From a phage: a DNA stretch of 64,000 nt. The stretch is taken from sequence record PX670417.1, one strand, 5' to 3'. Positions within the stretch are counted from its first letter, which is position 1. The number at the start of each line of letters is the position of its first letter. A program made the position numbers and the translations under genes. The notes under the pieces are model-generated. The model did no database searches, had not been told where the DNA came from, and saw only the letters and a list, made by a program, of their open reading frames with translations. Of this stretch, positions 1,294-59,852 are shown one piece after another.

Positions 1294-1358
1294 TTTTGAA
1301 TCTCCTAGTTTAAGGACTTTACTTAGTGGGGAGGTTATCCCTCCCGTTGATTAGTAAT
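1294..1358 (-). promoter_or_regulatory. Intergenic stem-loop + RBS cassette, class A (GGGAGG-TTATC-CCTCCC hairpin about 1328-1345, then ...AAACTAGGAGATTCAAAAATG)
   Basis: Near-identical cassette recurs upstream of at least 6 early ORFs. Confidence 0.65.
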
Positions 1359-1622
1359 TTACTGCATGTTGGCGTATGTTGCAAGCCTTTTTTCGTTGTA
1401 TTTTGTAAGAATCTCACAAGATAAAACATCGTAATTTGTAACAGCGTTGCTTTTATCAAGGTCAAAGAATCCAAACGTTTTACCATCTTTGAATCCGACA
1501 ACTTCGTAAGACTCTTTGATGATTTCACCATTGAACAAATCACTTTCGATGCGGTGAATTAATGCTACGTTTTCTTTGTCGGTTGCAATTTGTAAAAGTG
1601 TGGTTAATTCTACGTTTTCCAT
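1359..1622 (-). CDS. Hypothetical early protein (87 aa; start moved to internal ATG that follows the conserved RBS)
   Basis: Track ORF 1359-1667; the class A hairpin lies inside the 5' extension, so the ATG at 1622 after CTAGGAG is the likely start. Confidence 0.5.
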   Translation of the reverse strand: MENVELTTLLQIATDKENVALIHRIESDLFNGEIIKESYEVVGFKDGKTFGFFDLDKSNAVTNYDVLSCEILTKYNEKRLATYANMQ

Positions 1623-1687
1623 CTTGATAACTCCTAGTTTAAGGATTTTGTTTAGTAGGGAGGTCATCCCTCCCGTTGATTAGTAAT
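1623..1687 (-). promoter_or_regulatory. Stem-loop + RBS cassette, class A variant (GGGAGG-TCATC-CCTCCC, about 1658-1674)
   Basis: Conserved hairpin and CTAGGAG RBS. Confidence 0.6.
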
Positions 1688-2218
1688 TTACAGATTTTTG
1701 ATTGTCTCGTCAATATCTTTTTCAATATCTTTTAAAGTTTTTTCTAAGTTCTTGATATTGAATGATAATCCTTCACCGAGAGTCTTAGAGTAACCGCTAG
1801 GGCGTAAGTCATGCAGTTCGATTTCTTCCACATTGGATAAGTTGACCATCCCACCATTTGCAGCATAGGCTATTGACACAGTATTTTCAGGTGCGTTGTA
1901 AAACTTGTTTAAGGACTTGATAGAACGTTCATAAGCCATTTTATAACTGTTTAAAAGGTTTTTAACGTGGTTGTGAACGTTTTTACACTCATCTAAGTAA
2001 ATCTCTAAGAATAGCGGTAATAACTCTGCTACAGCTTGCATAAAATGAGAGACTACAACGGTTGCAACATTACGGCGATGAATGTAATAAGCCCCGTTTT
2101 CTGATTTGGTGATGGTTGCAAAGTGTACACCATTGCAACGAAATTCATAGGTGTCTTTAACAGGCTTTGACATTACATGGATTGAGCGAATGTAGTTGAT
2201 AGCTTGAAATTTGTTCAT
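1688..2218 (-). CDS. Hypothetical early protein (176 aa)
   Basis: ORF preceded by class A cassette. Confidence 0.6.
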   Translation of the reverse strand: MNKFQAINYIRSIHVMSKPVKDTYEFRCNGVHFATITKSENGAYYIHRRNVATVVVSHFMQAVAELLPLFLEIYLDECKNVHNHVKNLLNSYKMAYERSIKSLNKFYNAPENTVSIAYAANGGMVNLSNVEEIELHDLRPSGYSKTLGEGLSFNIKNLEKTLKDIEKDIDETIKNL

Positions 2219-2290
2219 TTTTGAATCTCCTAGTTTAAGGACTTTACTTAGTGGGGAGGTTATCCCTCCCGTTGATTAGTAATTTACTTG
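2219..2290 (-). promoter_or_regulatory. Stem-loop + RBS cassette, class A (hairpin about 2254-2270)
   Basis: Conserved hairpin and RBS. Confidence 0.65.
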
Positions 2291-2438
2291 TTTTGATAGC
2301 TGATTGCAAGCAATTTTTTAAGTTTATCTATAAAGAATCTTTTAAGTTAATCCCTTTTAGATAAATCCCCTCGAACAAAGTTACCAATGTCAAGAGGGAT
2401 TGTCAACACTTTTTTAAAAGTTTTTTGTAAGTTCTTGA

Positions 2439-2780
2439 TTAACTGATGAATATTTTTTCAGGTTTTACATAGTTCATCTTTTGGCCTTTGAGCAAATCAT
2501 CCCAGATTAAAGCGGCGATATGAGAATAACCGGATTCACGTAATAGCCTCATTGTTTTACTTCTAGTTTCGAATCTGGTTGCGTAGTATTCACTATTCAA
2601 GGCCGTTTTATTCCCTTCCTTGTCTACATGAATAATCTGCATTACTTGAAAGGGGCTGATATCCTCGCCTTTGTTCCATTGCTCAAAGTATTTTAGGCAC
2701 TGCATAGGTGACATCTTGTCACTTACTTGAGTTGACCAAGATGAGCCAGCTTTATCGGTAATTACGGTTACATAAGCCAT
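2439..2780 (-). CDS. Hypothetical early protein (113 aa)
   Basis: ORF preceded by class A cassette; followed by about 150 nt noncoding carrying two TTGACA boxes on the minus strand (about 2370-2400). Confidence 0.6.
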   Translation of the reverse strand: MAYVTVITDKAGSSWSTQVSDKMSPMQCLKYFEQWNKGEDISPFQVMQIIHVDKEGNKTALNSEYYATRFETRSKTMRLLRESGYSHIAALIWDDLLKGQKMNYVKPEKIFIS

Positions 2781-2868
2781 TTTTGAATCTCCTAGTTTAA
2801 GGATTTTACTTAGTGGGGAGGTTATCCCTCCCGTTGATTGACAATTTACAGACTTTTATCAGGCTTGT
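2781..2868 (-). promoter_or_regulatory. Stem-loop + RBS cassette, class A (hairpin about 2816-2832)
   Basis: Conserved hairpin and RBS. Confidence 0.65.
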
Positions 2869-3102
2869 CTAGTCTTTTTCAATGATAATTTCATATTGAC
2901 CATCAACGCTGTCAAAATAAACGCCGTCGCTGTCTTCTGTCTTAAAATAACACTGAATGTCATCACTGGCGGGGTAGTCTTGTCTTGCTATCTGACAGAC
3001 CTGAACGGCATTTTCTTTACTTCCTGTAAACTCCTCAAGCCCTTTAAAATCACATGAATGACTGTTACAAATAGAAAGGATGAGATAAACAGTTGTAAGC
3101 AT
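2869..3102 (-). CDS. Hypothetical small protein with hydrophobic N-terminus (77 aa; possible signal peptide)
   Basis: N-terminus MLTTVYLILSICNSHS is hydrophobic. Confidence 0.5.
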   Translation of the reverse strand: MLTTVYLILSICNSHSCDFKGLEEFTGSKENAVQVCQIARQDYPASDDIQCYFKTEDSDGVYFDSVDGQYEIIIEKD

Positions 3103-3168
3103 GATTTAAGCCTCTTAAAAGCCCCTTACAGGGGCTGAATAGTGTTTATAAGGTGATTGTATAGGTTT
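3103..3168 (-). promoter_or_regulatory. Intergenic hairpin GCCCC-TGTAA-GGGGC (about 3121-3135) followed by TTTT on the minus strand
   Basis: GC stem plus short T-run; terminator-like. Confidence 0.45.
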
Positions 3169-3711
3169 TCAGAAAAAGCTCTTTAAATCTCTTTCTATGA
3201 TGTTTCCCGTCAGTGTGTCCATGATGTCACAAAAAACTTGAATACTATCGGACTGTTGAACGCTTTTAGCGAGAAGTTCCAGAGACTCGTCAATATAGCT
3301 TAAATTCGGGTTATCTAGTGAAGGCAGACAAAATGGTGAAAACATAGCATTAAATTCAGTGGTGTAAACCTTTTTAATCCAGTTTAAATCGAAATATTCT
3401 GTAAAACTTGCCACGCCAGACATATTATCACAAGAATAATCATCGTTTAACTCATCTTCTGGAATATCAAGTTCTAAGATAACAATATTTTGGGTTTTCA
3501 TCTGGAAAGCTGCGGTGATAGCGGCATTGCCCAGAGCTTGCTGGATACCTTCAGAGATTATCTCTTCCTCATCGTCGCCATAGATTTTATTTTCTGGATA
3601 AACGTAAAAATTCCCATCCATATCCGAACAATTCCATGCACCTGATGGCTTATCACCGTTATTAATCAGGTTGATAAAATTTTCTTGAGTAGTACCGTGA
3701 AAGCATTTCAT
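3169..3711 (-). CDS. Hypothetical acidic early protein (180 aa) with N-terminal FHGT motif
   Basis: MKCFHGTTQ... then YVY and acidic stretches; motif-level only. Confidence 0.55.
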   Translation of the reverse strand: MKCFHGTTQENFINLINNGDKPSGAWNCSDMDGNFYVYPENKIYGDDEEEIISEGIQQALGNAAITAAFQMKTQNIVILELDIPEDELNDDYSCDNMSGVASFTEYFDLNWIKKVYTTEFNAMFSPFCLPSLDNPNLSYIDESLELLAKSVQQSDSIQVFCDIMDTLTGNIIERDLKSFF

Positions 3712-3803
3712 TTTTGAATCTCCTAGTTTAAGGACTTGATTTAGTGGTAAAGCTCTTTATCTGGGGCTTAAGATATCAACTTTTAAGCCCCTTGTAAAGT
3801 ACT
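3712..3803 (-). promoter_or_regulatory. Stem-loop + RBS cassette, class B (GGGGCTTAA-11 nt loop-TTAAGCCCC, about 3763-3791)
   Basis: Class B cassette recurs at 6187-6281 and 7010-7097. Confidence 0.65.
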
Positions 3804-4007
3804 TTATCGGTTATTTTTGATAACTTTTAAAACTGCGCGGTATCCTAAGCAATAAGAATCACCGAAGAGCGACCGACCCATGAATGAATCCTCTTTGATA
3901 TCCTTTGCAGTGACAGTCTTTTCTACGCCGTTAAAAAGAACTATATCGCCAACTTTGATATCTTTGATATGAGTAGTTTCAATGTTTAAACCGTTGATAA
4001 TAGCCAT
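3804..4007 (-). CDS. Hypothetical small protein (67 aa)
   Basis: ORF preceded by class A cassette. Confidence 0.5.
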   Translation of the reverse strand: MAIINGLNIETTHIKDIKVGDIVLFNGVEKTVTAKDIKEDSFMGRSLFGDSYCLGYRAVLKVIKNNR

Positions 4008-4107
4008 TCTTGAATCTCCTAGTTTAAGGACTTTACTTAGTGGGGAGGTTATCCCTCCCGTTGATTAGTAATTTACTTGTTTTAAAAATCAATGTCAACA
4101 AAATTTT
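4008..4107 (-). promoter_or_regulatory. Stem-loop + RBS cassette, class A (hairpin about 4043-4059)
   Basis: Conserved hairpin and RBS. Confidence 0.65.
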
Positions 4108-4512
4108 TTAGAGTTCTGCATAAATTGCATCGCAGATACCACGAAAATCATGATTTGTCAAATTACGTTGTAACCAAGTGGCGAAAAAGTCAGCGATTGC
4201 AAAGTTAGCGTCATACTCGACAGATAGCCACACTTTAACAGCAAACCGAAACATTTTCAAATCAAGCTCTTTATTCATTACCTTAGATTTGCCTAACATG
4301 TCGGTCATTTCATATTGTGCACCGTCTAGCGTGATACCTGCTGCAACGTCAGCCAATGAGTTTTTTACGTTTTCAACGTCTAAGATAACGCTTTGAATCT
4401 TCCCAATAATGTTGTGCAATGTTTCGTCCGGTGCTGATGACGTAATAACATTAATCCGGTTAACGGTTAAACGTGCTTTTAAGATTGATAGCTCGCGATT
4501 ATTAATAGCCAT
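4108..4512 (-). CDS. Hypothetical early protein (134 aa; start moved to ATG after conserved RBS)
   Basis: The track's MENLKMAI N-terminus is a translation of the cassette; GGAGAACTTAAAA-ATG fixes the start at 4512. Confidence 0.55.
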   Translation of the reverse strand: MAINNRELSILKARLTVNRINVITSSAPDETLHNIIGKIQSVILDVENVKNSLADVAAGITLDGAQYEMTDMLGKSKVMNKELDLKMFRFAVKVWLSVEYDANFAIADFFATWLQRNLTNHDFRGICDAIYAEL

Positions 4513-4598
4513 TTTTAAGTTCTCCAATTTAGGATTTAGTGGTAAAGCTCTTTATCTGGGGCTTACTTTATCGAACTATAAGCCCCTTGTAAAGTACT
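4513..4598 (-). promoter_or_regulatory. Stem-loop + RBS cassette, class B2 (GGGGCTTA-13 nt loop-TAAGCCCC, about 4558-4586); about 100 nt identical to 6540-6628
   Basis: Exact duplicate of the cassette at 6540-6628 including the first codons. Confidence 0.7.
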
Positions 4599-4871
4599 TT
4601 ATACTAAATGCAGCTTTTTGCCTTTTACCATGATGTAACTTGTTGCGCTATTGCTATGCACATCTTGATAAATTCTGCGCAAACGGCCTTCGTAGTATAC
4701 TTTCCAACTGGTTGGAATCTTTTTCCCGTACCCTGTAGCAGTTTTTTGGAGTCCTGCAAGTTGCCAATCTAAGATATGTTGTTCGGCTTGTAAATCCTCG
4801 AAGTGCATTACACCGTTCACATAGTGGCGCAAAGTTACATTTAGAGTACGACCGTTGTTAGTAGTATACAT
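4599..4871 (-). CDS. Hypothetical early protein (90 aa)
   Basis: ORF preceded by class A cassette. Confidence 0.55.
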   Translation of the reverse strand: MYTTNNGRTLNVTLRHYVNGVMHFEDLQAEQHILDWQLAGLQKTATGYGKKIPTSWKVYYEGRLRRIYQDVHSNSATSYIMVKGKKLHLV

Positions 4872-4958
4872 TTTCTAATCTCCTAGTTTAAGGACTTTAC
4901 TTAGTGGGGAGGTTATCCCTCCCGTTGATTAGTAATTTACTTGCTTTAAAAACCAAAA
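4872..4958 (-). promoter_or_regulatory. Stem-loop + RBS cassette, class A (hairpin about 4907-4923)
   Basis: Conserved hairpin and RBS. Confidence 0.65.
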
Positions 4959-5291
4959 TCAAGAGGAATTTTTTCGTTTGTTCAGTTCTTGGACAATTAC
5001 AGCGTAATAATCTTTTAAGTCACTGATATTTAAAGCATTTATCAGGGAGTTATAATCATCAACCAACTGAAAATCATCTTTTAAGATATCACTTATCTGA
5101 TAGGTTTTCGCTTTGAATCTGAAGCTCATTTCTAGCCGCTTTATTTGCTCATCACTTAAACGCTCCAGAAAGCTCATTACAAGGCTATTATTGACCTGTT
5201 GCGTGATTGCCTTACTTGCCAGATTGTAGGCGCTGTAAGCCTTATAAAGTGCTATAATGGCGATGATTGCAGTGATGCCCATCATTAGCAT
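4959..5291 (-). CDS. Hypothetical membrane protein (110 aa; N-terminal TM helix)
   Basis: MLMMGITAIIAIIALYKAY hydrophobic segment; overlaps upstream gene by 7 nt. Confidence 0.5.
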   Translation of the reverse strand: MLMMGITAIIAIIALYKAYSAYNLASKAITQQVNNSLVMSFLERLSDEQIKRLEMSFRFKAKTYQISDILKDDFQLVDDYNSLINALNISDLKDYYAVIVQELNKRKNSS

Positions 5292-5581
5292 GGTGTTACC
5301 TCTCTGCGTGATACTTTACCATTTACAGTTATCTCATAAGCTTCTAATAAATCACTTTCAGATTTAACAGGACTTTTAAAAGTATCATCATAAACATTAA
5401 TTTGCAATACAGGCTTTTTATACTCCCTGCAACTATTCCATAAGCAAATTACTACGCGACGGCCTTTTATTTTGCCGTGTAACCATTCCATAACATCATG
5501 ACTATTTCTTGATGTCTCGATAAAATCAATTTTATTGAGTAATTTGCTTAGATTTTCACGCACTTGATTTGATAATTTCAT
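5285..5581 (-). CDS. Hypothetical early protein (98 aa)
   Basis: ORF preceded by class B-like cassette. Confidence 0.5.
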   Translation of the reverse strand: MKLSNQVRENLSKLLNKIDFIETSRNSHDVMEWLHGKIKGRRVVICLWNSCREYKKPVLQINVYDDTFKSPVKSESDLLEAYEITVNGKVSRREVTPC

Positions 5582-5673
5582 TTTTGAATCTCCTAGTTTA
5601 AGGGCTTTATTTGATAAATCTCTTTATCTGGGGCTATCCTACCAGCTTGTTAGCCCCGTGTAAAGAAATCTAT
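5582..5673 (-). promoter_or_regulatory. Stem-loop + RBS cassette, class B variant (GGGGCTA-14 nt loop-TAGCCCC, about 5630-5657)
   Basis: Conserved RBS TAGGAGATTCAAAAATG and related hairpin. Confidence 0.6.
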
Positions 5674-6186
5674 TTAGTTCTTAAAGATATTCATCACTGA
5701 ATCTTTTAATGCTTCCAAGCGTTCTAATACTTCAGATTCTGCGTCTGCGTTGTTCACCTCTTCTTTTAGTCTATCCTCTAAATCATCGCCGTCACGATAG
5801 CACCAATCGAAAGCGTAACCAAGATAAAAACTTTCTAAAACCGTGCTACCGTTTGCATCCACAACTTTCGCGGCAAGGCTATACTCTGAAGCCTCTAAAT
5901 CTCTTTCTAGTTCTTTCTGTAAGCTTGTGTAAGCCTCTTTCGATGGATTCTCACGGCCTTGTTTTGCATAGTCACTTGAAAGCTGCTTAAGGCTGTAATG
6001 CAAAGGGATTGCATATTTAAACTCATTACGCTGACAGTTGGTGTTTTTAATAGTTACACCGCCTTGATGGTCATCTGTAAACTCCCAATTATCCATATTA
6101 TGGCTTGCTTCGTAGCAATTAACAGCCTCATAAATGATGGAAAATTTTTCTTTTACAACTTCAAAGGTAGCGTCTACAGTTTTCAT
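5674..6186 (-). CDS. Hypothetical acidic early protein (170 aa)
   Basis: Asp/Glu-rich ORF preceded by class B cassette. Confidence 0.55.
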   Translation of the reverse strand: MKTVDATFEVVKEKFSIIYEAVNCYEASHNMDNWEFTDDHQGGVTIKNTNCQRNEFKYAIPLHYSLKQLSSDYAKQGRENPSKEAYTSLQKELERDLEASEYSLAAKVVDANGSTVLESFYLGYAFDWCYRDGDDLEDRLKEEVNNADAESEVLERLEALKDSVMNIFKN

Positions 6187-6281
6187 TTTTGAATCTCCTA
6201 GTTTAAGGACTTGATTTAGTGGTAAAGCTCTTTATCTGGGGCTTAAGATATCAACTTTTAAGCCCCTTGTAAAGTACTTTA
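6187..6281 (-). promoter_or_regulatory. Stem-loop + RBS cassette, class B (hairpin about 6238-6266)
   Basis: Conserved hairpin and RBS. Confidence 0.65.
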
Positions 6282-6539
6282 TCAGATTAAATTGCCAGTT
6301 AATGATAAGTGCATTTTATAGCCTTTTTTGGTAAAAACGTTCACTTTACCGAGTGATTTTACACCTTTAAAAAGGTTGTTTGAACTGCGTTTTAAGGTTA
6401 GTTGCTTATCAGCTTTCACGCCCCACCTTACAGCAGTTTGTTTTCCGTTGTCAACCACTTTTCCGCATAACTTTTTAGCCATAACGCGAGCGTCATCACG
6501 AGTCTTTGCAGTAATTACAACGTTTTTGATAATAGCCAT
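6282..6539 (-). CDS. Hypothetical basic early protein (85 aa; start moved to ATG after conserved RBS)
   Basis: Same cassette-derived MENLKMAI artefact as ORF 4108-4527. Confidence 0.5.
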   Translation of the reverse strand: MAIIKNVVITAKTRDDARVMAKKLCGKVVDNGKQTAVRWGVKADKQLTLKRSSNNLFKGVKSLGKVNVFTKKGYKMHLSLTGNLI

Positions 6540-6628
6540 TTTTAAGTTCTCCAATTTAGGATTTAGTGGTAAAGCTCTTTATCTGGGGCTTACTTTATCG
6601 AACTATAAGCCCCTTGTAAAGTACTTTA
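6540..6628 (-). promoter_or_regulatory. Stem-loop + RBS cassette, class B2 (hairpin about 6585-6613); duplicate of 4513-4598
   Basis: About 100 nt identity with the 4.5 kb copy. Confidence 0.7.
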
Positions 6629-7009
6629 TTAGTTAATTTTGAAAATTGTCACATAACCATCGCTCCCGATGATTTGTGATACCCCAGCTTTTTCTACTTG
6701 ATAGCCCATATTTTCAAGATGGTAAACAGCATCATCGTAACCATATGCGCCACCCTGATAACGTCGCTTATCACATTTTATCAGGTTTTTACCGCGTCCA
6801 GCAAGTGCATTCAGTACGGCTTTTTCACTTGATAGTGTACCATCTATCATGGTTGCCGTGTAATGGTTGATTTTATTCCCATTAATATCATACTTAAAAT
6901 TGAATGCGTGAACAATAATCAATTTACCGTTAAATTTTTCATCAAGTGACTTCTCCAGTGCGTTGCGGAAGTTGTCTTTATTGATGAATTTCGGTGCACG
7001 ATAAGCCAT
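6629..7009 (-). CDS. Hypothetical early protein (126 aa)
   Basis: ORF preceded by class B cassette. Confidence 0.55.
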   Translation of the reverse strand: MAYRAPKFINKDNFRNALEKSLDEKFNGKLIIVHAFNFKYDINGNKINHYTATMIDGTLSSEKAVLNALAGRGKNLIKCDKRRYQGGAYGYDDAVYHLENMGYQVEKAGVSQIIGSDGYVTIFKIN

Positions 7010-7097
7010 TTTAGAATCTCCTAGTTTAAGGTAAGTTAGTAAAGCTCTTTATCTGGGGCTTAAGATATCAGCTTTTAAGCCCCTTGTAAAGTACTTT
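7010..7097 (-). promoter_or_regulatory. Stem-loop + RBS cassette, class B (hairpin about 7055-7083)
   Basis: Conserved hairpin and RBS. Confidence 0.65.
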
Positions 7098-7304
7098 TTA
7101 TATATCGTAATAGTAAACCGCTGACTGTTTTATATGTCGCTTTGTATTCTTTGTTAGGTAGCAATTAGAGTTAATTGCCGTTTCTACATAGTTGCAATAA
7201 TCAGCTTCTGATATTCTACGCCATGCGCCGCACACTTGCATATAAAAACGTTTTGCCTTTGTGTTAACGTTGGTTGTAACCATCAATTCGCGACTGTACA
7301 TCAT
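7098..7304 (-). CDS. Hypothetical early protein (68 aa); first gene of the leftward early operon
   Basis: RBS GGAGA 8 nt upstream; lies immediately downstream of the candidate early promoter. Confidence 0.45.
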   Translation of the reverse strand: MMYSRELMVTTNVNTKAKRFYMQVCGAWRRISEADYCNYVETAINSNCYLTKNTKRHIKQSAVYYYDI

Positions 7305-20267: not shown

Positions 20268-20715
20268 ACTCTTTTCTCCAGAGGTTTTGGTTATCAGAAC
20301 CACGATATGGTTTAACTGTTGGTTTAGAAGAATCATACTTACCATCAATCACCACGTCAACATATTTCATCACATCTAGGTGAATTTTTTCGTGTAACTG
20401 AAAACCTGTCCATAGCCAGATAGATTTTTCTGGGTAAACAGTTTTAATACGTTTACATATGTTGGTGACCTCTTGAATGTTTCTGTCATCAAGAGGCTCT
20501 CCCCCAAGTATTGACAACCCACTGATGGCATTATCATCCATTAGCTTAATGATGCCGTAAAGGTTTGCATAAGTAAACTCTTTACCAGCATTAAACTTCC
20601 AAGACTCCCTGTTAAAGCAACCTTCACAGTGATGTTTACAGCCAGCTACGAAGAGGCTTACACGAACCCCTTCACCATTAGCTGTGTCAAATGGTCGAAT
20701 CTCCATGTAATTCAT
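20230..20715 (-). CDS. nrdG: Anaerobic ribonucleotide reductase activating protein (radical SAM), NrdG
   Basis: CKHHCEGC (CxxxCxxC) cluster; overall pattern similar to T4 NrdG as recalled. Confidence 0.75.
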   Translation of the reverse strand: MNYMEIRPFDTANGEGVRVSLFVAGCKHHCEGCFNRESWKFNAGKEFTYANLYGIIKLMDDNAISGLSILGGEPLDDRNIQEVTNICKRIKTVYPEKSIWLWTGFQLHEKIHLDVMKYVDVVIDGKYDSSKPTVKPYRGSDNQNLWRKEYGWQGDCQWRAE

Positions 20716-47623: not shown

Positions 47624-47662
47624 ACAAAAAAGGCTCCTTTTTACGGGAGCCTTAAAATTTTA
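47624..47662. terminator. Bidirectional intrinsic terminator at the convergence of rightward and leftward blocks
   Basis: AAGGCTCC-TTTTTAC-GGGAGCCTT flanked by A-run and T-run on both sides. Confidence 0.6.
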
Positions 47663-48031
47663 TTTTTCAGTATTCTTTGTGTTCTTTTCAGTAATAGCTT
47701 GGAGGGCTGATACTGATTGAGCCAGATTGTTAACACTATCAGAGAATTTATCAAGAGTCTTAGTAAGTTTTGCGTTCTCTCCCTTAACATTCTCTAACTG
47801 GACTTTCTGGTTCTCCATCCCTAGCTGAAGCAGCCTCATATCAGACTGTAAATCACGAATAGCTGAATAATTGCTTTTGGAATAATTATCTAGCTGTTGC
47901 AACTTTGTTGTGATAGACACTTCTTGTTTACCATCCGAAACTTGCATGGTGGTATACATCCCAATAACACTAAAAATACCAACTACAATTGCACCAATAT
48001 TATTTTTAAAAGCTTCCTCTAGCCACTTCAT
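47660..48031 (-). CDS. Membrane-anchored coiled-coil protein (123 aa)
   Basis: N-terminal TM helix then heptad-rich sequence. Confidence 0.5.
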   Translation of the reverse strand: MKWLEEAFKNNIGAIVVGIFSVIGMYTTMQVSDGKQEVSITTKLQQLDNYSKSNYSAIRDLQSDMRLLQLGMENQKVQLENVKGENAKLTKTLDKFSDSVNNLAQSVSALQAITEKNTKNTEK

Positions 48032-48225
48032 TTATTCTCCCCCTTAAAAGCTTTTTCTAAGTTATCTACGAACTCATCATCAATAGGTGTGTCTGTCTTA
48101 CTCGCAAGGTATCTTGCAAGCCTAAAGAACACTTTCTCAATCATGTATTCACTTAGAAGGGATAAAATGAGTTTCCAGAAGAAGCTACCTAGATTTTTTA
48201 GAAGAATTGCTAGGATTGTAGGCAT
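48028..48225 (-). CDS. Small hypothetical protein (65 aa)
   Basis: ORF. Confidence 0.4.
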   Translation of the reverse strand: MPTILAILLKNLGSFFWKLILSLLSEYMIEKVFFRLARYLASKTDTPIDDEFVDNLEKAFKGENK

Positions 48226-48304
48226 TTAATCACCTCATCAGCCAAGATGGTGAGAATACCCATAAAGAATATTAACACCATCTTAACAAGCAGTCAATAA
48301 TGGA

Positions 48305-48479
48305 TTAAGCAGTTCTTACCCAAGCCATTAACTTATAGAACTGGTTAGTAACACTGAATGCTGAACCAGAACCTGTACCACCAGTGTTACCACTAACTGT
48401 GTGGGTGTGAGCACCAATAGCTATTGCGTGAGCATGCTGCGCACCGTGGTCAGTATAACCACTTACAGAGTGGGTGTGG
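48305..48479 (-). other. Out-of-frame (+1) continuation of the tail-fiber gene encoding a His-rich C-terminal module
   Basis: +1 frame reads DHTHSVSGYTDHGAQHAHAIAIGAHTHTVSGNTGGTGSGSAFSVTNQFYKLMAWVRTA, matching the C-terminus of the paralogous fiber at 50704-51852. Confidence 0.5.
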
Positions 48480-50657
48480 TCACCACCCCCCATCAGTGTA
48501 ACCCGGACCTGTACCGATTCTACCACCACCACCACCAGAATAGTGTGTAGAGTTCTGACCAATCCACGAGATAGCGTGGTTGTGGTGACCAGCAGATGAA
48601 GTAGAACCACTTACAGCGTGTGAGTGAGCACCATTGACAACAGTTTCTTTTACACCATAATCAAAAGATGAAGTGGTAGCAGAGAAACTATGAGTGTGTG
48701 ATGGTAAGTTACCAACAGCTAACGCCACAGAATCTGAACCACCAGTTGTAGCAACATCTGAACCGTTTGCTGCTGCAATTCTGATAGTTCTACCAACACC
48801 ATTGTTGAGGTACGTCCAAGTTAGACCAGGCAGTGCTGTATTAGGGTCAACATTACTGTTAAACCATGTCACAATACCCACTGGATAGATTTTATTAAGG
48901 TCTGTAGAGTCACTTACTGCCTGTGCAATCTTCTGGTCAGTCTCTGCTTTAGTGTATGCACCAATTTCTGAAGGGGTTGGTTTCTGAGCTTCGTTGTAAA
49001 CCTTAGACCATCCAGCCTCAAAACCATGTGCGTCTCTGGCTGTTCTGTACCACATCCCACCATTTTTATAATCAAACATCAATTGTGCAGCAGGTGTTGA
49101 TGCTCCCGTATTAACGAACATATGCGAGACTAAACGGCTTGCCCCACCACCCTTAATCATCTCAATATAAATTCCTGAAGGTTGATTCCAAGCTACGCCA
49201 CCATCTTCTTCTCTTACTGTGCCTCTGGCTGCTGACCAGATATACTTTGAATCGGTTGCAGATTTAACGTAGTATCTAGCATCTAAGTTAGTCCAGTCTT
49301 GTGGTTGTACCTGTCCATTAATATACAGGCTCTTATTCACACTAACCAATGCTTGCTCTAGAGAAATTTGAGTGCCTGAAAAGCTGTTATTCAAGGCTAC
49401 CACGTTAGAGCTAGCGCCTCCTACACCTAGCCACCACCTAGATACATTCGCAGTATCAACGCCACGAATATACAAACCTTGATTTTGTGTCAAATTCTTA
49501 ACAATCAACCCTTCATTGTTAGCAACAATAGTCTGTGTATTCGTGAAAGTATTAGACACATTAAGTTTAGCAAGATTACTCAGAGTTCCTGCTGGGATGT
49601 ATCTAGAGTCAATATTAGTCCAATCTGAAGGCTGAACTTGTCCAGTGATTTTTACAGTCTTGCTGAATGTAGCACCAGACGAGTCTAAGACCATCGAGGT
49701 GTTGCCCTTATAATCGTGTAATGTGGTACTATAGTTTGCACTACCCTTACCAAGATACCACAAGTTATTATTTTCACTATCTTTTGCTAGGATGAATAAA
49801 GATTCATTTGTAGATTTATTTTGCAGCATGATAGCAGCAGAATTAGAGATGATGTTAACAGCATTATTGAATGTATTTAAACCACTAAAAGTATTATTAG
49901 CAGTTAACTGTGCAAATCTCTGATTAGCTGCTGTCTGAGTAAAGTATCTAGCATCTAAGTTAGACCAATCAGAAGGCTGTACTTGACCAGTGATTGCTAA
50001 AGACTTATTAACAGAGATATTGCTTGCAACAGTCACTGCTGAGTTGTATTTGTTGTTATACAGGCTTACTGCATCATCGCCATTGCTACCAATACCAATC
50101 CACCATCTAGCTGAACCATCTAGGTTTACACCCTCAATGTATTGTGCATTATTTGCAATCTGGTTTCTAAGGCGAAGTGCGTTACCATCACTTTGAATAC
50201 TCTGATTTCTAGAGAATGTGTTTGTAACAGCAAGCCTTGCATATCTTGCATCATTCTCTTCATTAGTTCTCATCCCAAGTTCATTAGGGCTTGGCTTATT
50301 CAGAGTATGATAAACAGTTGCCGACCTTGAAGCATCTGCAATAGTCAGTTTAAGACCATTTGCATTGATTTTAAAAGTCTTTAAAACATCCCCCATAGTA
50401 ATCTCAGAAGAGTCTGTAGGGTCAAATACGGCCTTACCACCATAAAGTAACTTGACAATTCCTAAGTCACCCGTCATAGTGCTACCAGCAATCTGGACAA
50501 ATCTTTCTAGTTTAAAAGATGCTAAGAAGTCTTGATAGGTCATTCGACGGTCTTCATCACCTAACATTTCAGGTCTCTTTTTGACCCTGACATGAAGAAG
50601 GTCGTCAGAACGGATTGTGTCGATTGAGTTTAATTCACTCAACTTGTAATCTGCCAT
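48480..50657 (-). CDS. Tail fiber protein (725 aa as read; apparently interrupted at its 3' end)
   Basis: Three internal repeats ITGQVQPSDW(S/T)N(L/I)D(A/S)RY; in-frame stop TGA directly after a G6 run. Confidence 0.6.
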   Translation of the reverse strand: MADYKLSELNSIDTIRSDDLLHVRVKKRPEMLGDEDRRMTYQDFLASFKLERFVQIAGSTMTGDLGIVKLLYGGKAVFDPTDSSEITMGDVLKTFKINANGLKLTIADASRSATVYHTLNKPSPNELGMRTNEENDARYARLAVTNTFSRNQSIQSDGNALRLRNQIANNAQYIEGVNLDGSARWWIGIGSNGDDAVSLYNNKYNSAVTVASNISVNKSLAITGQVQPSDWSNLDARYFTQTAANQRFAQLTANNTFSGLNTFNNAVNIISNSAAIMLQNKSTNESLFILAKDSENNNLWYLGKGSANYSTTLHDYKGNTSMVLDSSGATFSKTVKITGQVQPSDWTNIDSRYIPAGTLSNLAKLNVSNTFTNTQTIVANNEGLIVKNLTQNQGLYIRGVDTANVSRWWLGVGGASSNVVALNNSFSGTQISLEQALVSVNKSLYINGQVQPQDWTNLDARYYVKSATDSKYIWSAARGTVREEDGGVAWNQPSGIYIEMIKGGGASRLVSHMFVNTGASTPAAQLMFDYKNGGMWYRTARDAHGFEAGWSKVYNEAQKPTPSEIGAYTKAETDQKIAQAVSDSTDLNKIYPVGIVTWFNSNVDPNTALPGLTWTYLNNGVGRTIRIAAANGSDVATTGGSDSVALAVGNLPSHTHSFSATTSSFDYGVKETVVNGAHSHAVSGSTSSAGHHNHAISWIGQNSTHYSGGGGGRIGTGPGYTDGGW

Positions 50658-50703: not shown

Positions 50704-51852
50704 TTAAGCTGTTCTCTGCCATACATACAATACGAAGGATGGCTGTTCAACGCTAAATGCTTGACCAGAACCAGTTGTGCCAGTTGTGCCAGAGTGAGAA
50801 TGCTCACCTGCTCCGGTTACTGTTACTGTTGCTGAGTGGTTGTGAGAACCAATTGCAACAGTGTGGCTGTGAGCACCAATCCCAACCGTGTGATTATGCG
50901 CACCAATTGCTACAGAGTGAGTGTGGTTGTTAGCTGTTGTCAACGTAGCTCTTGGGTCATAGCTTGCCCCCTCAACCGATAAACCTCTCCAGCCACCATC
51001 AGCATAGCCACGGTTAATGAATGTTGTTTGTGTTAAGCCAGCAGCACTGGTTGTTCTGTTGCCATAGTCGTAAGTAGATACGGTCTTGGTTCCGTAGTCA
51101 AACGTTGTAGTCCCTTTAGTGCCATAATCAAAAGCACTGATAGAGGCCGTTGCACCATGAGTGTGACCACCACCAGTGACGTACACTGAGTGGGTATGTG
51201 CAGGGATGTTATTAACCGTCAGTGCAGCAGTCTGTGAACCAAACGTTGAACCAACTGGCCTAGAATCACTATCATAACCTACAAGTGCTCTCCCTTTTGA
51301 GACTAACTCCCAAGTACCCCCACAAATTAAATATGTAGAGGGGTTTGCAGGATTCATAGAGAGATGGATAGTACCTACTGGATAAGAAGCCTGAACAGCC
51401 TTGTACAAGTTATTTACTGCTCTTGCTGTAGCATACTTATCTGCATCTTCATTATAAAGGTTAGATGTTGTCCAGTTCTGGACATTACTTAAACCAACCT
51501 GCGCCTTAGTTGTATTGTGTGGGTTACTCTTGTCATTAATATGCTGTTGAATAAGACTATTAACCTCTACTGAAGACATAATCTGTAGATTTTTTCTTGC
51601 CTCAGCTACATTAACAATATCTGATAAGTTATTTGCAGCAACTAACTGAAGAGCATTAATAACATTATCTAAACCAATTTGTGTTTTAGTAACACCATGA
51701 GGGTTATTTCTTAGGCTTGAGTGTGGAGCAAGTAATTGCTCAAGAGTACATCTCTTATCCTCAATACCCTGCTTAAGATGGAAGATATCACTAAGGTCAA
51801 TTGGTAAGGCTGCTTGAGGCAAGGCACTAATTTGAATTTCACCTACTGCCAT
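50704..51852 (-). CDS. Tail fiber protein with C-terminal His-x-His repeat module (382 aa)
   Basis: Repeats NPHGVTKTQIGLDNV / NPHNTTKAQVGLSNV; FDYGTK x3; C-terminal HTHSVAIGAHNHTVGIGAHSHTVAIGSHNHS. Confidence 0.6.
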   Translation of the reverse strand: MAVGEIQISALPQAALPIDLSDIFHLKQGIEDKRCTLEQLLAPHSSLRNNPHGVTKTQIGLDNVINALQLVAANNLSDIVNVAEARKNLQIMSSVEVNSLIQQHINDKSNPHNTTKAQVGLSNVQNWTTSNLYNEDADKYATARAVNNLYKAVQASYPVGTIHLSMNPANPSTYLICGGTWELVSKGRALVGYDSDSRPVGSTFGSQTAALTVNNIPAHTHSVYVTGGGHTHGATASISAFDYGTKGTTTFDYGTKTVSTYDYGNRTTSAAGLTQTTFINRGYADGGWRGLSVEGASYDPRATLTTANNHTHSVAIGAHNHTVGIGAHSHTVAIGSHNHSATVTVTGAGEHSHSGTTGTTGSGQAFSVEQPSFVLYVWQRTA

Positions 51853-51854
51853 TA

Positions 51855-59852
<7,998 letters not shown>

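Follow-up and report, generated by a model that had tools for sequence, protein, structure and literature searches.

The long tail fibre (LTF) gene of this phage is broken in the sequence record at a run of six G. The extra G is very probably a one-off, unprogrammed insertion, from a run of five (G5) to a run of six (G6), in an ordinary Felixounavirus LTF gene. The DNA analysed here, called the window, is the whole 64,000-nucleotide stretch of the record PX670417.1. It is from a Felix O1-like myovirus of the genus Felixounavirus. The window is matched by about 230–280 Escherichia, Salmonella and Shigella phage records, the best of which shows an identity of about 94%, and none of them is the same genome. 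With one G removed, the whole LTF gene is located at 48305..50657 on the minus strand, encodes 783 aa and is the orthologue of Bas63 gp27 and of dune_79.

Reading frames across the G run

In the record, the frame-0 part of the LTF gene is an ORF of 725 aa (48480..50657, minus strand), which ends with GPGYTDGGW and is followed by TGA. The G6 run is located at 48486–48491 on the minus strand (CCCCCC on the plus strand). Both features were confirmed as given in a preliminary description that a model had made from the letters of the DNA. The run is the sole G/C run of at least six bases in the 64-kb window. In the alignments and in the IMG/VR locus L005, the closest relatives with the same allele have a run that is one G shorter, an in-frame G5. 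The minus-strand coding sequence across the break is ...GGT TAC ACT GAT GGG GGG TGG TGA CCA CAC.... The TGA had been placed immediately after the G run, but a TGG codon intervenes.

Past the Gly triplet, the shifted frame is open for 58 codons and ends at 48305 on the minus strand. The +1 frame had been described with this length, and it proved to be the conserved C-terminus of the orthologues in all relatives. The segment corresponds to 48305..48481 on the minus strand (DHTHSVSG...AWVRTA*, 58 codons and the stop). The minus-strand translation of 48305–48490 is GGGDHTHSVSGYTDHGAQHAHAIAIGAHTHTVSGNTGGTGSGSAFSVTNQFYKLMAWVRTA, and the end of the shifted frame reads ...SGSAFSVTNQFYKLMAWVRTA. When one G was deleted in silico, a single ORF of 783 aa with no internal stop was obtained; the loss of one G thus fuses the two frames, as had been proposed. 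The fused protein reads ...GPGYTDGGGDHTHSVSGYTDHGAQ... across the junction.

Two other accounts of the frames were considered and rejected. A second, compensating indel is ruled out; there is no change of frame between the ATG and the run, nor between the run and the stop. Separate translation of the downstream piece is also ruled out. No in-frame ATG, GTG or TTG is present in the shifted segment before a Met located five residues from its end, and therefore the downstream piece cannot be made alone.

The neighbourhood of the gene is the same as in Bas63: baseplate genes, a 382-aa fibre, the LTF, a small ORF and a holin. After the holin, thymidylate synthase and dihydrofolate reductase genes are located on the opposite strand, and this gene order is also shared with Bas63. 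The 382-aa fibre (50704..51852, minus strand) is an intact short tail fibre (STF) paralogue and the orthologue of Bas63 gp26. Directly upstream of the STF gene, a 100-aa protein is encoded at 51855..52157 on the minus strand. This protein probably corresponds to the LTF platform (Bas63 gp25), an assignment by gene order alone, and the order around this gene agrees with dune and Bas63. The next ORF (52157–53014, 285 aa) matches the length of Bas63 wedge 1. In Bas63, gp25 is the LTF platform and gp24 is the 285-residue wedge 1 (PMC12609058). In the annotations, each LTF orthologue is a single CDS of 2352–2355 nt. An exact look-up of the fibre proteins of the window among 15 billion sequences gave no match.

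The tip fold and the part beyond the break

The fused protein is aligned with the 784-aa Bas63 gp27 over residues 1–783, with an identity of 80%. In the fused LTF, the Pfam domains gp37_trimer (three copies, 6.4e-67), gp37_C (1.3e-14) and Gp10_C were detected. The last 200 residues match the tip of T4 gp37 (PDB 2xgf) with E values of 1.1e-7 and 2.2e-11. The STF paralogue also contains Gp10_C (1.9e-17), and its tip consists of a collar, an HxH needle and a head, as in the LTF. By BLASTP, the paralogue matches the C-terminus of the LTF with E=7e-14, and the alignment extends to the last residue (...WQRTA and ...WVRTA, respectively). The shared architecture and terminal motif of the two fibres, as well as the T4 gp37-like His-x-His tip, had been noticed in the preliminary description and are borne out by these searches. 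The LTF has a T4 gp37-like His-x-His tip, and the shifted frame is its true C-terminus.

The tip fold is known from cryo-EM of Bas63, in which gp27 is the 630-angstrom long tail fibre and gp26 is the short fibre (PMC12609058). In both fibre tips of Bas63, a collar is followed by a needle and a small head, at which the chain reverses and goes back to the collar; the trimeric needle is six-stranded and held by His-x-His motifs (PMC12609058). The Bas63 LTF has six HxH motifs, and the head-adjacent one is HHxH at residues 692–695 (PMC12609058). According to Bartual et al. (2010), as cited in PMC12609058, the HxH motifs bind iron.

The window LTF resembles Bas63 gp27 in many respects. Its place in the genome is the same, with the STF gene on one side and the small ORF and the holin on the other; it has six HxH motifs including the head-adjacent HHxH, an identical head and nearly the same length (783 versus 784 aa). 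The two genes differ at the run. Bas63 has G5 (GAT GGG GGT GGT GAC) and a single open frame, whereas the window has G6 and a stop. They also differ in a patch of the descending needle, which is YTDHGAQHAHAIA in the window and TAAYAGDHAHSVG in Bas63. The window LTF likewise shares the collar, needle and head with HxH repeats of the T4 gp37 tip (PDB 2XGF), and DHTHS just past the G run is aligned with the first descending NHSHT of T4 gp37. Unlike T4 gp37, the needle of the window LTF is shorter (six motifs, not seven) and the head is different. Moreover, the window fibre is one polypeptide, which also bears gp34-like rod repeats.

In the fused protein of the window, the HxH motifs are located at residues 654, 678 and 692 and at residues 727, 741 and 750, and the break is at residue 725. 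The two sets of motifs are on either side of the head, which is hypervariable among the relatives. The stop falls after residue 725, namely at the end of the receptor-binding head. The N-terminus that binds the baseplate, the rod and the initial part of the collar are all present in the frame-0 part, together with the ascending strand of the needle and the head. The shifted segment encodes the descending needle strand (HxH motifs 4–6) and the C-terminal collar strand. As a result, the truncated ORF is missing the entire descending strand, which carries three of the six HxH motifs, and also the last strand of the collar.

On the basis of the Bas63 and T4 structures, the needle of the window LTF is predicted to be a metal-binding, six-stranded trimer. 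Since such a needle is an interlocked six-stranded barrel fed by a chain that doubles back, we infer that the truncated 725-aa fibre should not fold or trimerize. By the same comparison, the lost segment would be the returning half of the needle together with a collar strand, rather than a detachable module. The preliminary description had suggested fibre isoforms with and without a tip module. This idea does not fit the fold, in which the lost segment cannot be detached (PMC12609058).

Run length and reading frame in relatives

The preliminary description had called for a comparison with orthologous fibres, and in this comparison the relatives are single-frame with the downstream segment conserved. 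Dune, Bas63 and warpig have G5 and one ORF of 783–784 aa, and their flanks are identical to those of the window over about 130 bases before the run and at least 10 bases after it. The IMG/VR loci L005 and L008 also have G5, and their aligned flanks are identical to those of the window. For LNA1 and EcF-vB, G5 was identified by exact matches of 34–43-mers. At least six relatives with the same flanks have G5, and one record, the window, is in the interrupted (OFF) state. All of the 34 records with an identity of at least 81% over the 441-base query span one base fewer than the query. A search with the fused C-terminus retrieved 23 IMG/VR relatives, and the frame is single and unbroken in all of them. 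A stop at the break site is absent from every relative checked, and all have one uninterrupted gene.

A 44-mer spanning the G6 run was found in 0 of 50,697 phage records. The 44-mer was designed so that every 28-base seed word includes the run. The corresponding 43-mer with G5, used as a control, matched five of the 50,697 records. Because the control matched, the blank with G6 cannot be attributed to low-complexity filtering. Two other searches were less useful. In a metagenome scan, the 21-mer with G6 was not found, and the four matches of the G5 20-mer control were unrelated chance matches to non-fibre sequences; the scan is uninformative. By tblastn, the 61-aa downstream peptide gave no match among the phage records despite the match at the DNA level, probably owing to the low-complexity filter and the shortness of the peptide.

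The run itself varies among the relatives. At this site, relatives with the same head but without a G run have GAT GCT AAC GGT GCT, GAT GCT GCT GGT GCG or GAT GCG GGT GGT GCG. In seven of 12 aligned relatives, there is no run of more than three G at the site. Elsewhere in the Gly-rich needle, an in-frame GCT GGG GGG CAC is present in two IMG/VR relatives (L010 and L013), compared with GGT GGA in another (L011). The G runs in the LTF look like incidental synonymous drift in Gly-Gly codons.

The shifted frame is in good condition. It contains no stop, and all three HxH motifs are kept. Compared with four relatives, the last 29 codons show 2–5 synonymous differences and no non-synonymous difference, and the same differences are non-synonymous when read in the other frames. 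A patch in the first half of the shifted segment (YTDHGAQHAHAIA) is divergent, with its best match elsewhere at about 80%, and this patch preserves the frame and the spacing of the motifs. The downstream frame is undecayed, and therefore the interruption is either very recent or not real.

The quality of the window was assessed against the complete dune genome. Of the dune ORFs with a length of 100 aa or more, 77 match the window, and a frame change was detected in one of these, the LTF. A spurious ORF that spans repeated intergenic elements was also flagged in this comparison. Apart from the G run, every coding indel has a length that is a multiple of three; the coding status of the indels was judged by hand from the annotated CDS coordinates of dune. 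No compared gene is broken at any of the 52 six-base A/T runs of the window or at its nine other five-base G/C runs. Homopolymer runs of at least seven bases are absent from the genome, where about eight are expected. The assembly as a whole is therefore not prone to homopolymer errors, which argues mildly for a real mutation. One residual error at the longest G/C run is nevertheless quite possible.

Explanations of the extra G

The one-off insertion can be pictured as follows. The real gene would be one ORF of 783 aa, with a tip built like those of T4 gp37 and Bas63 gp27. The chain at the tip would climb the needle with its HxH metal sites, make the head, descend the needle and finish in the collar. 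The insertion would hit the final codons of the head, so that the record would encode a fibre with neither the return strand nor the closing collar strand. The extra G would come from slippage at this run, the longest of G or C in the genome. Such slippage may be a sequencing error, made when bases were called or the genome was assembled, or a real mutation, made by the phage polymerase while the phage was recently propagated; we regard these two as about equally likely. The stock may also contain a stable mixture of G5 and G6. The preliminary description had offered a homopolymer error, a programmed +1 frameshift and phase variation. The error survives, and the latter two are disfavoured by the lack of G6 and of the stop in relatives. 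A plain recent slippage mutation, which was missing from that list, fits equally well as the error. Recoding and evolved phase variation are disfavoured because the run is not conserved, and nor is the stop.

Evolved slipped-strand phase variation is unlikely, though less so than the other rivals. According to this explanation, toggling between G5 and G6 would produce LTF-on and LTF-off subpopulations as bet-hedging, and the sequenced stock would be mostly OFF. The longest G/C homopolymer of the window does sit in a host-recognition gene, and an OFF state with G6 would readily revert. A second, intact fibre set (STF) with a similar tip is present, with which LTF-off particles might infect some hosts. 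However, the tract is not conserved, and relatives with the same head lack any run. The genome is depleted of long runs, with none of at least seven bases against about eight expected, and G runs in the Gly-rich LTF also appear elsewhere through synonymous drift. No second OFF allele was detected among the 50,697 phage records or the 23 IMG/VR relatives. Precedents in phages are the polyG tracts of Campylobacter phages (as cited in PMC10877375) and the runs of at least six bases in T2, T4 and other phages, which were proposed as contingency loci (preprint 10.1101/2025.10.21.683753). The functional state of the window gene is G5, below the criterion of at least six in that preprint, and the same preprint reports a deficit of such runs in genes for tail fibres. 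These tracts are like the window in that a one-base change in a coding homopolymer acts as a reversible off switch. They differ from it in being long, or at least six bases, in the ON state and in having length variants within populations, whereas the ON state of the window would be G5. The polyG tracts of Campylobacter phages contain about 9 or more G. If a G5/G6 switch were true, Felixounavirus lysates would contain a heritable and reversible mixture of LTF-on and LTF-off particles controlled by a very short tract, a case of bet-hedging at the level of fibres in a coliphage. The LTF-off particles would infect via the short fibres, and the window would represent a stock that has drifted or been selected to OFF.

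A programmed +1 ribosomal frameshift, at GGG-G or at a prfB-like UGG-UGA, would produce the 725-aa and 783-aa fibres in a set ratio, and we consider it highly improbable. The tRNA-Gly would re-pair perfectly one base on in G6, the product would be the orthologous protein, the UGA is located two codons past the first position where a slip could occur, and the run of G resembles a Shine-Dalgarno sequence. These features are outweighed by the relatives, which use one frame and lack the stop, the G6 run and often the run itself. The short product would contain half of an interlocked needle, with no plausible role. At UGG-UGA, the tRNA-Trp would re-pair poorly on GGU. No downstream RNA structure above shuffled sequences was detected (z = -0.60), a result that weighs less for +1 sites. 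At prfB-type sites, a slow codon or a stop codon is expected in the A site. A slip on GGG-G would leave GGG or UGG, not a stop, in the A site. The remaining explanation, to which we give the least credence of all, is that the truncated 725-aa fibre is functional as a stable, shortened receptor-binding variant and that the downstream segment is a dead remnant. The head sequence is indeed kept to residue 723, where it is the same as in Bas63. However, a gp37-type chain supplies both strands of the needle and returns its C-terminus to the collar, the supposed remnant is under coding constraint and undecayed, and no relative ends at the break site.

Under the one-off insertion, 48305–50657 is to be annotated as one LTF gene with a suspected frameshift. 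It should be described neither as a short fibre with an orphan ORF nor as a recoding event. The architecture of the fibre has been described before, in Bas63 and T4; the lesion belongs to a familiar class of artefacts or mutations and offers no new mechanism. If the extra G is real, the stock would be without long fibres, which is relevant to the use of the isolate in host-range studies or therapy. It would also mean that a Felixounavirus can be propagated on short fibres alone. A true G6 genome could yield some full-length fibre: if tRNA-Gly slipped by +1 on GGG-G, its pairing would again be perfect and the orthologous protein would result.

In laboratory lambda (PaPa), the frameshift in stf was reportedly established as a real mutation by Hendrix and Duda in 1992, by genetics and electron microscopy. 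As in the window, a single-base frameshift splits the side tail fibre gene in one propagated stock, and the wild relatives have one ORF. Lambda PaPa remains viable on its laboratory host despite the split stf. Unlike for lambda stf, mutation and error are rated about equal for the lesion in the window. For Bas63, positions 0 to about 21,000 are described as uniformly essential in the PhageMaP report (PMC11482910). The Bas63 LTF gene starts at 20,694, near the limit of about 21,000, and thus its essentiality is ambiguous; pooled screens also permit complementation in trans. A similar case to the window is Escherichia phage EC6 (NC_027369), in which the LTF is given as two CDSs and T6 is present where T5 restores the frame. 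The break in EC6 is about 250 codons upstream of that in the window and involves a different base.

Homopolymer runs in the LTF gene and in the genome

In the record of Escherichia phage EC6 (NC_027369; L004), the annotation divides the orthologous long tail fibre (LTF) gene into two CDSs, gp055 and gp056, at a T6 run in GGT AGT TTT TTA C (L004 about 3142–3147). When one T is removed, ...GSFYRTARDRYGFEQAW... is regained, matching ...GGMWYRTARDAHGFEAGW of the window. EC6 joins the window as the second record whose LTF gene carries a single-base insertion in a homopolymer. Two of the IMG/VR relatives, L010 and L013, have an in-frame G6 in the descending needle (about 1954–1959; GCT GGG GGG CAC, Ala-Gly-Gly-His), and other relatives have GGT GGA or GGG GGA at this site. 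This in-frame G6 shows that six-G runs arise and are tolerated in frame in the LTF gene.

The window (1–64000) contains 41 T6, 11 A6 and one C6, and no run of seven or more of any base was found in the whole window. The homopolymer cut-off is sharp at six. According to fifth-order Markov simulations of the window, about 7.9 runs of at least seven bases are expected (minimum 2 in 200 simulations). In the complete genome of the close Felixounavirus relative dune (88.5 kb; L006 and L007), the runs of seven are only two T7 and one C7. The sharp limit, the excess in the simulations and the scarcity in dune together suggest that slippage-prone runs are selected against in Felixounavirus genomes.

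Head domain and descending needle

The head domain (LTF residues about 696–725; window 48483–48572) is located between the third and fourth His-x-His motifs. Among the 23 IMG/VR relatives (L008–L030), at least five unrelated head sequences are present, one type being a T4 gp37-like head (YIEAWNGTG...), and the needle strands on either side are conserved. The head domain behaves as an exchange cassette.

In the descending needle (48400–48455, minus strand), the window has the patch SGYTDHGAQHAHAIAIGAHTH, whereas close relatives have SGTAASAGNHAHSVGIGAHSH. About nine residues differ from all of them, and no match above about 82% was found in phage records. The His-x-His spacing is kept. The patch appears to be a needle allele that is either novel or of recombinant origin.

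Intergenic elements

Beyond the end of the LTF gene, no terminator-like site was detected. A sigma-70-like promoter match (48268–48297, minus strand; TTGACT and TAATAT 17 nt apart, plus an upstream TG) is located directly past the LTF stop, and a 65-aa ORF (48028–48225) and a holin-like ORF (47660–48031) follow 3' of it.

A repeated intergenic unit was also observed in the early region (1300–7100, plus strand). AATCTCCTAGTTTAAGG occurs nine times (1299, 2224, 2786, 3717, 4013, 4877, 5587, 6192 and 7015), and the hairpin GGGGAGGTTATCCCTCCC five times (1328, 2253, 2815, 4042 and 4906). These repeats are probably terminator and promoter cassettes, repeated between small early genes. The dune copies of the hairpin have a longer stem (GGGGAAGGTCATTCCCTCCCC), indicating that both arms change together.
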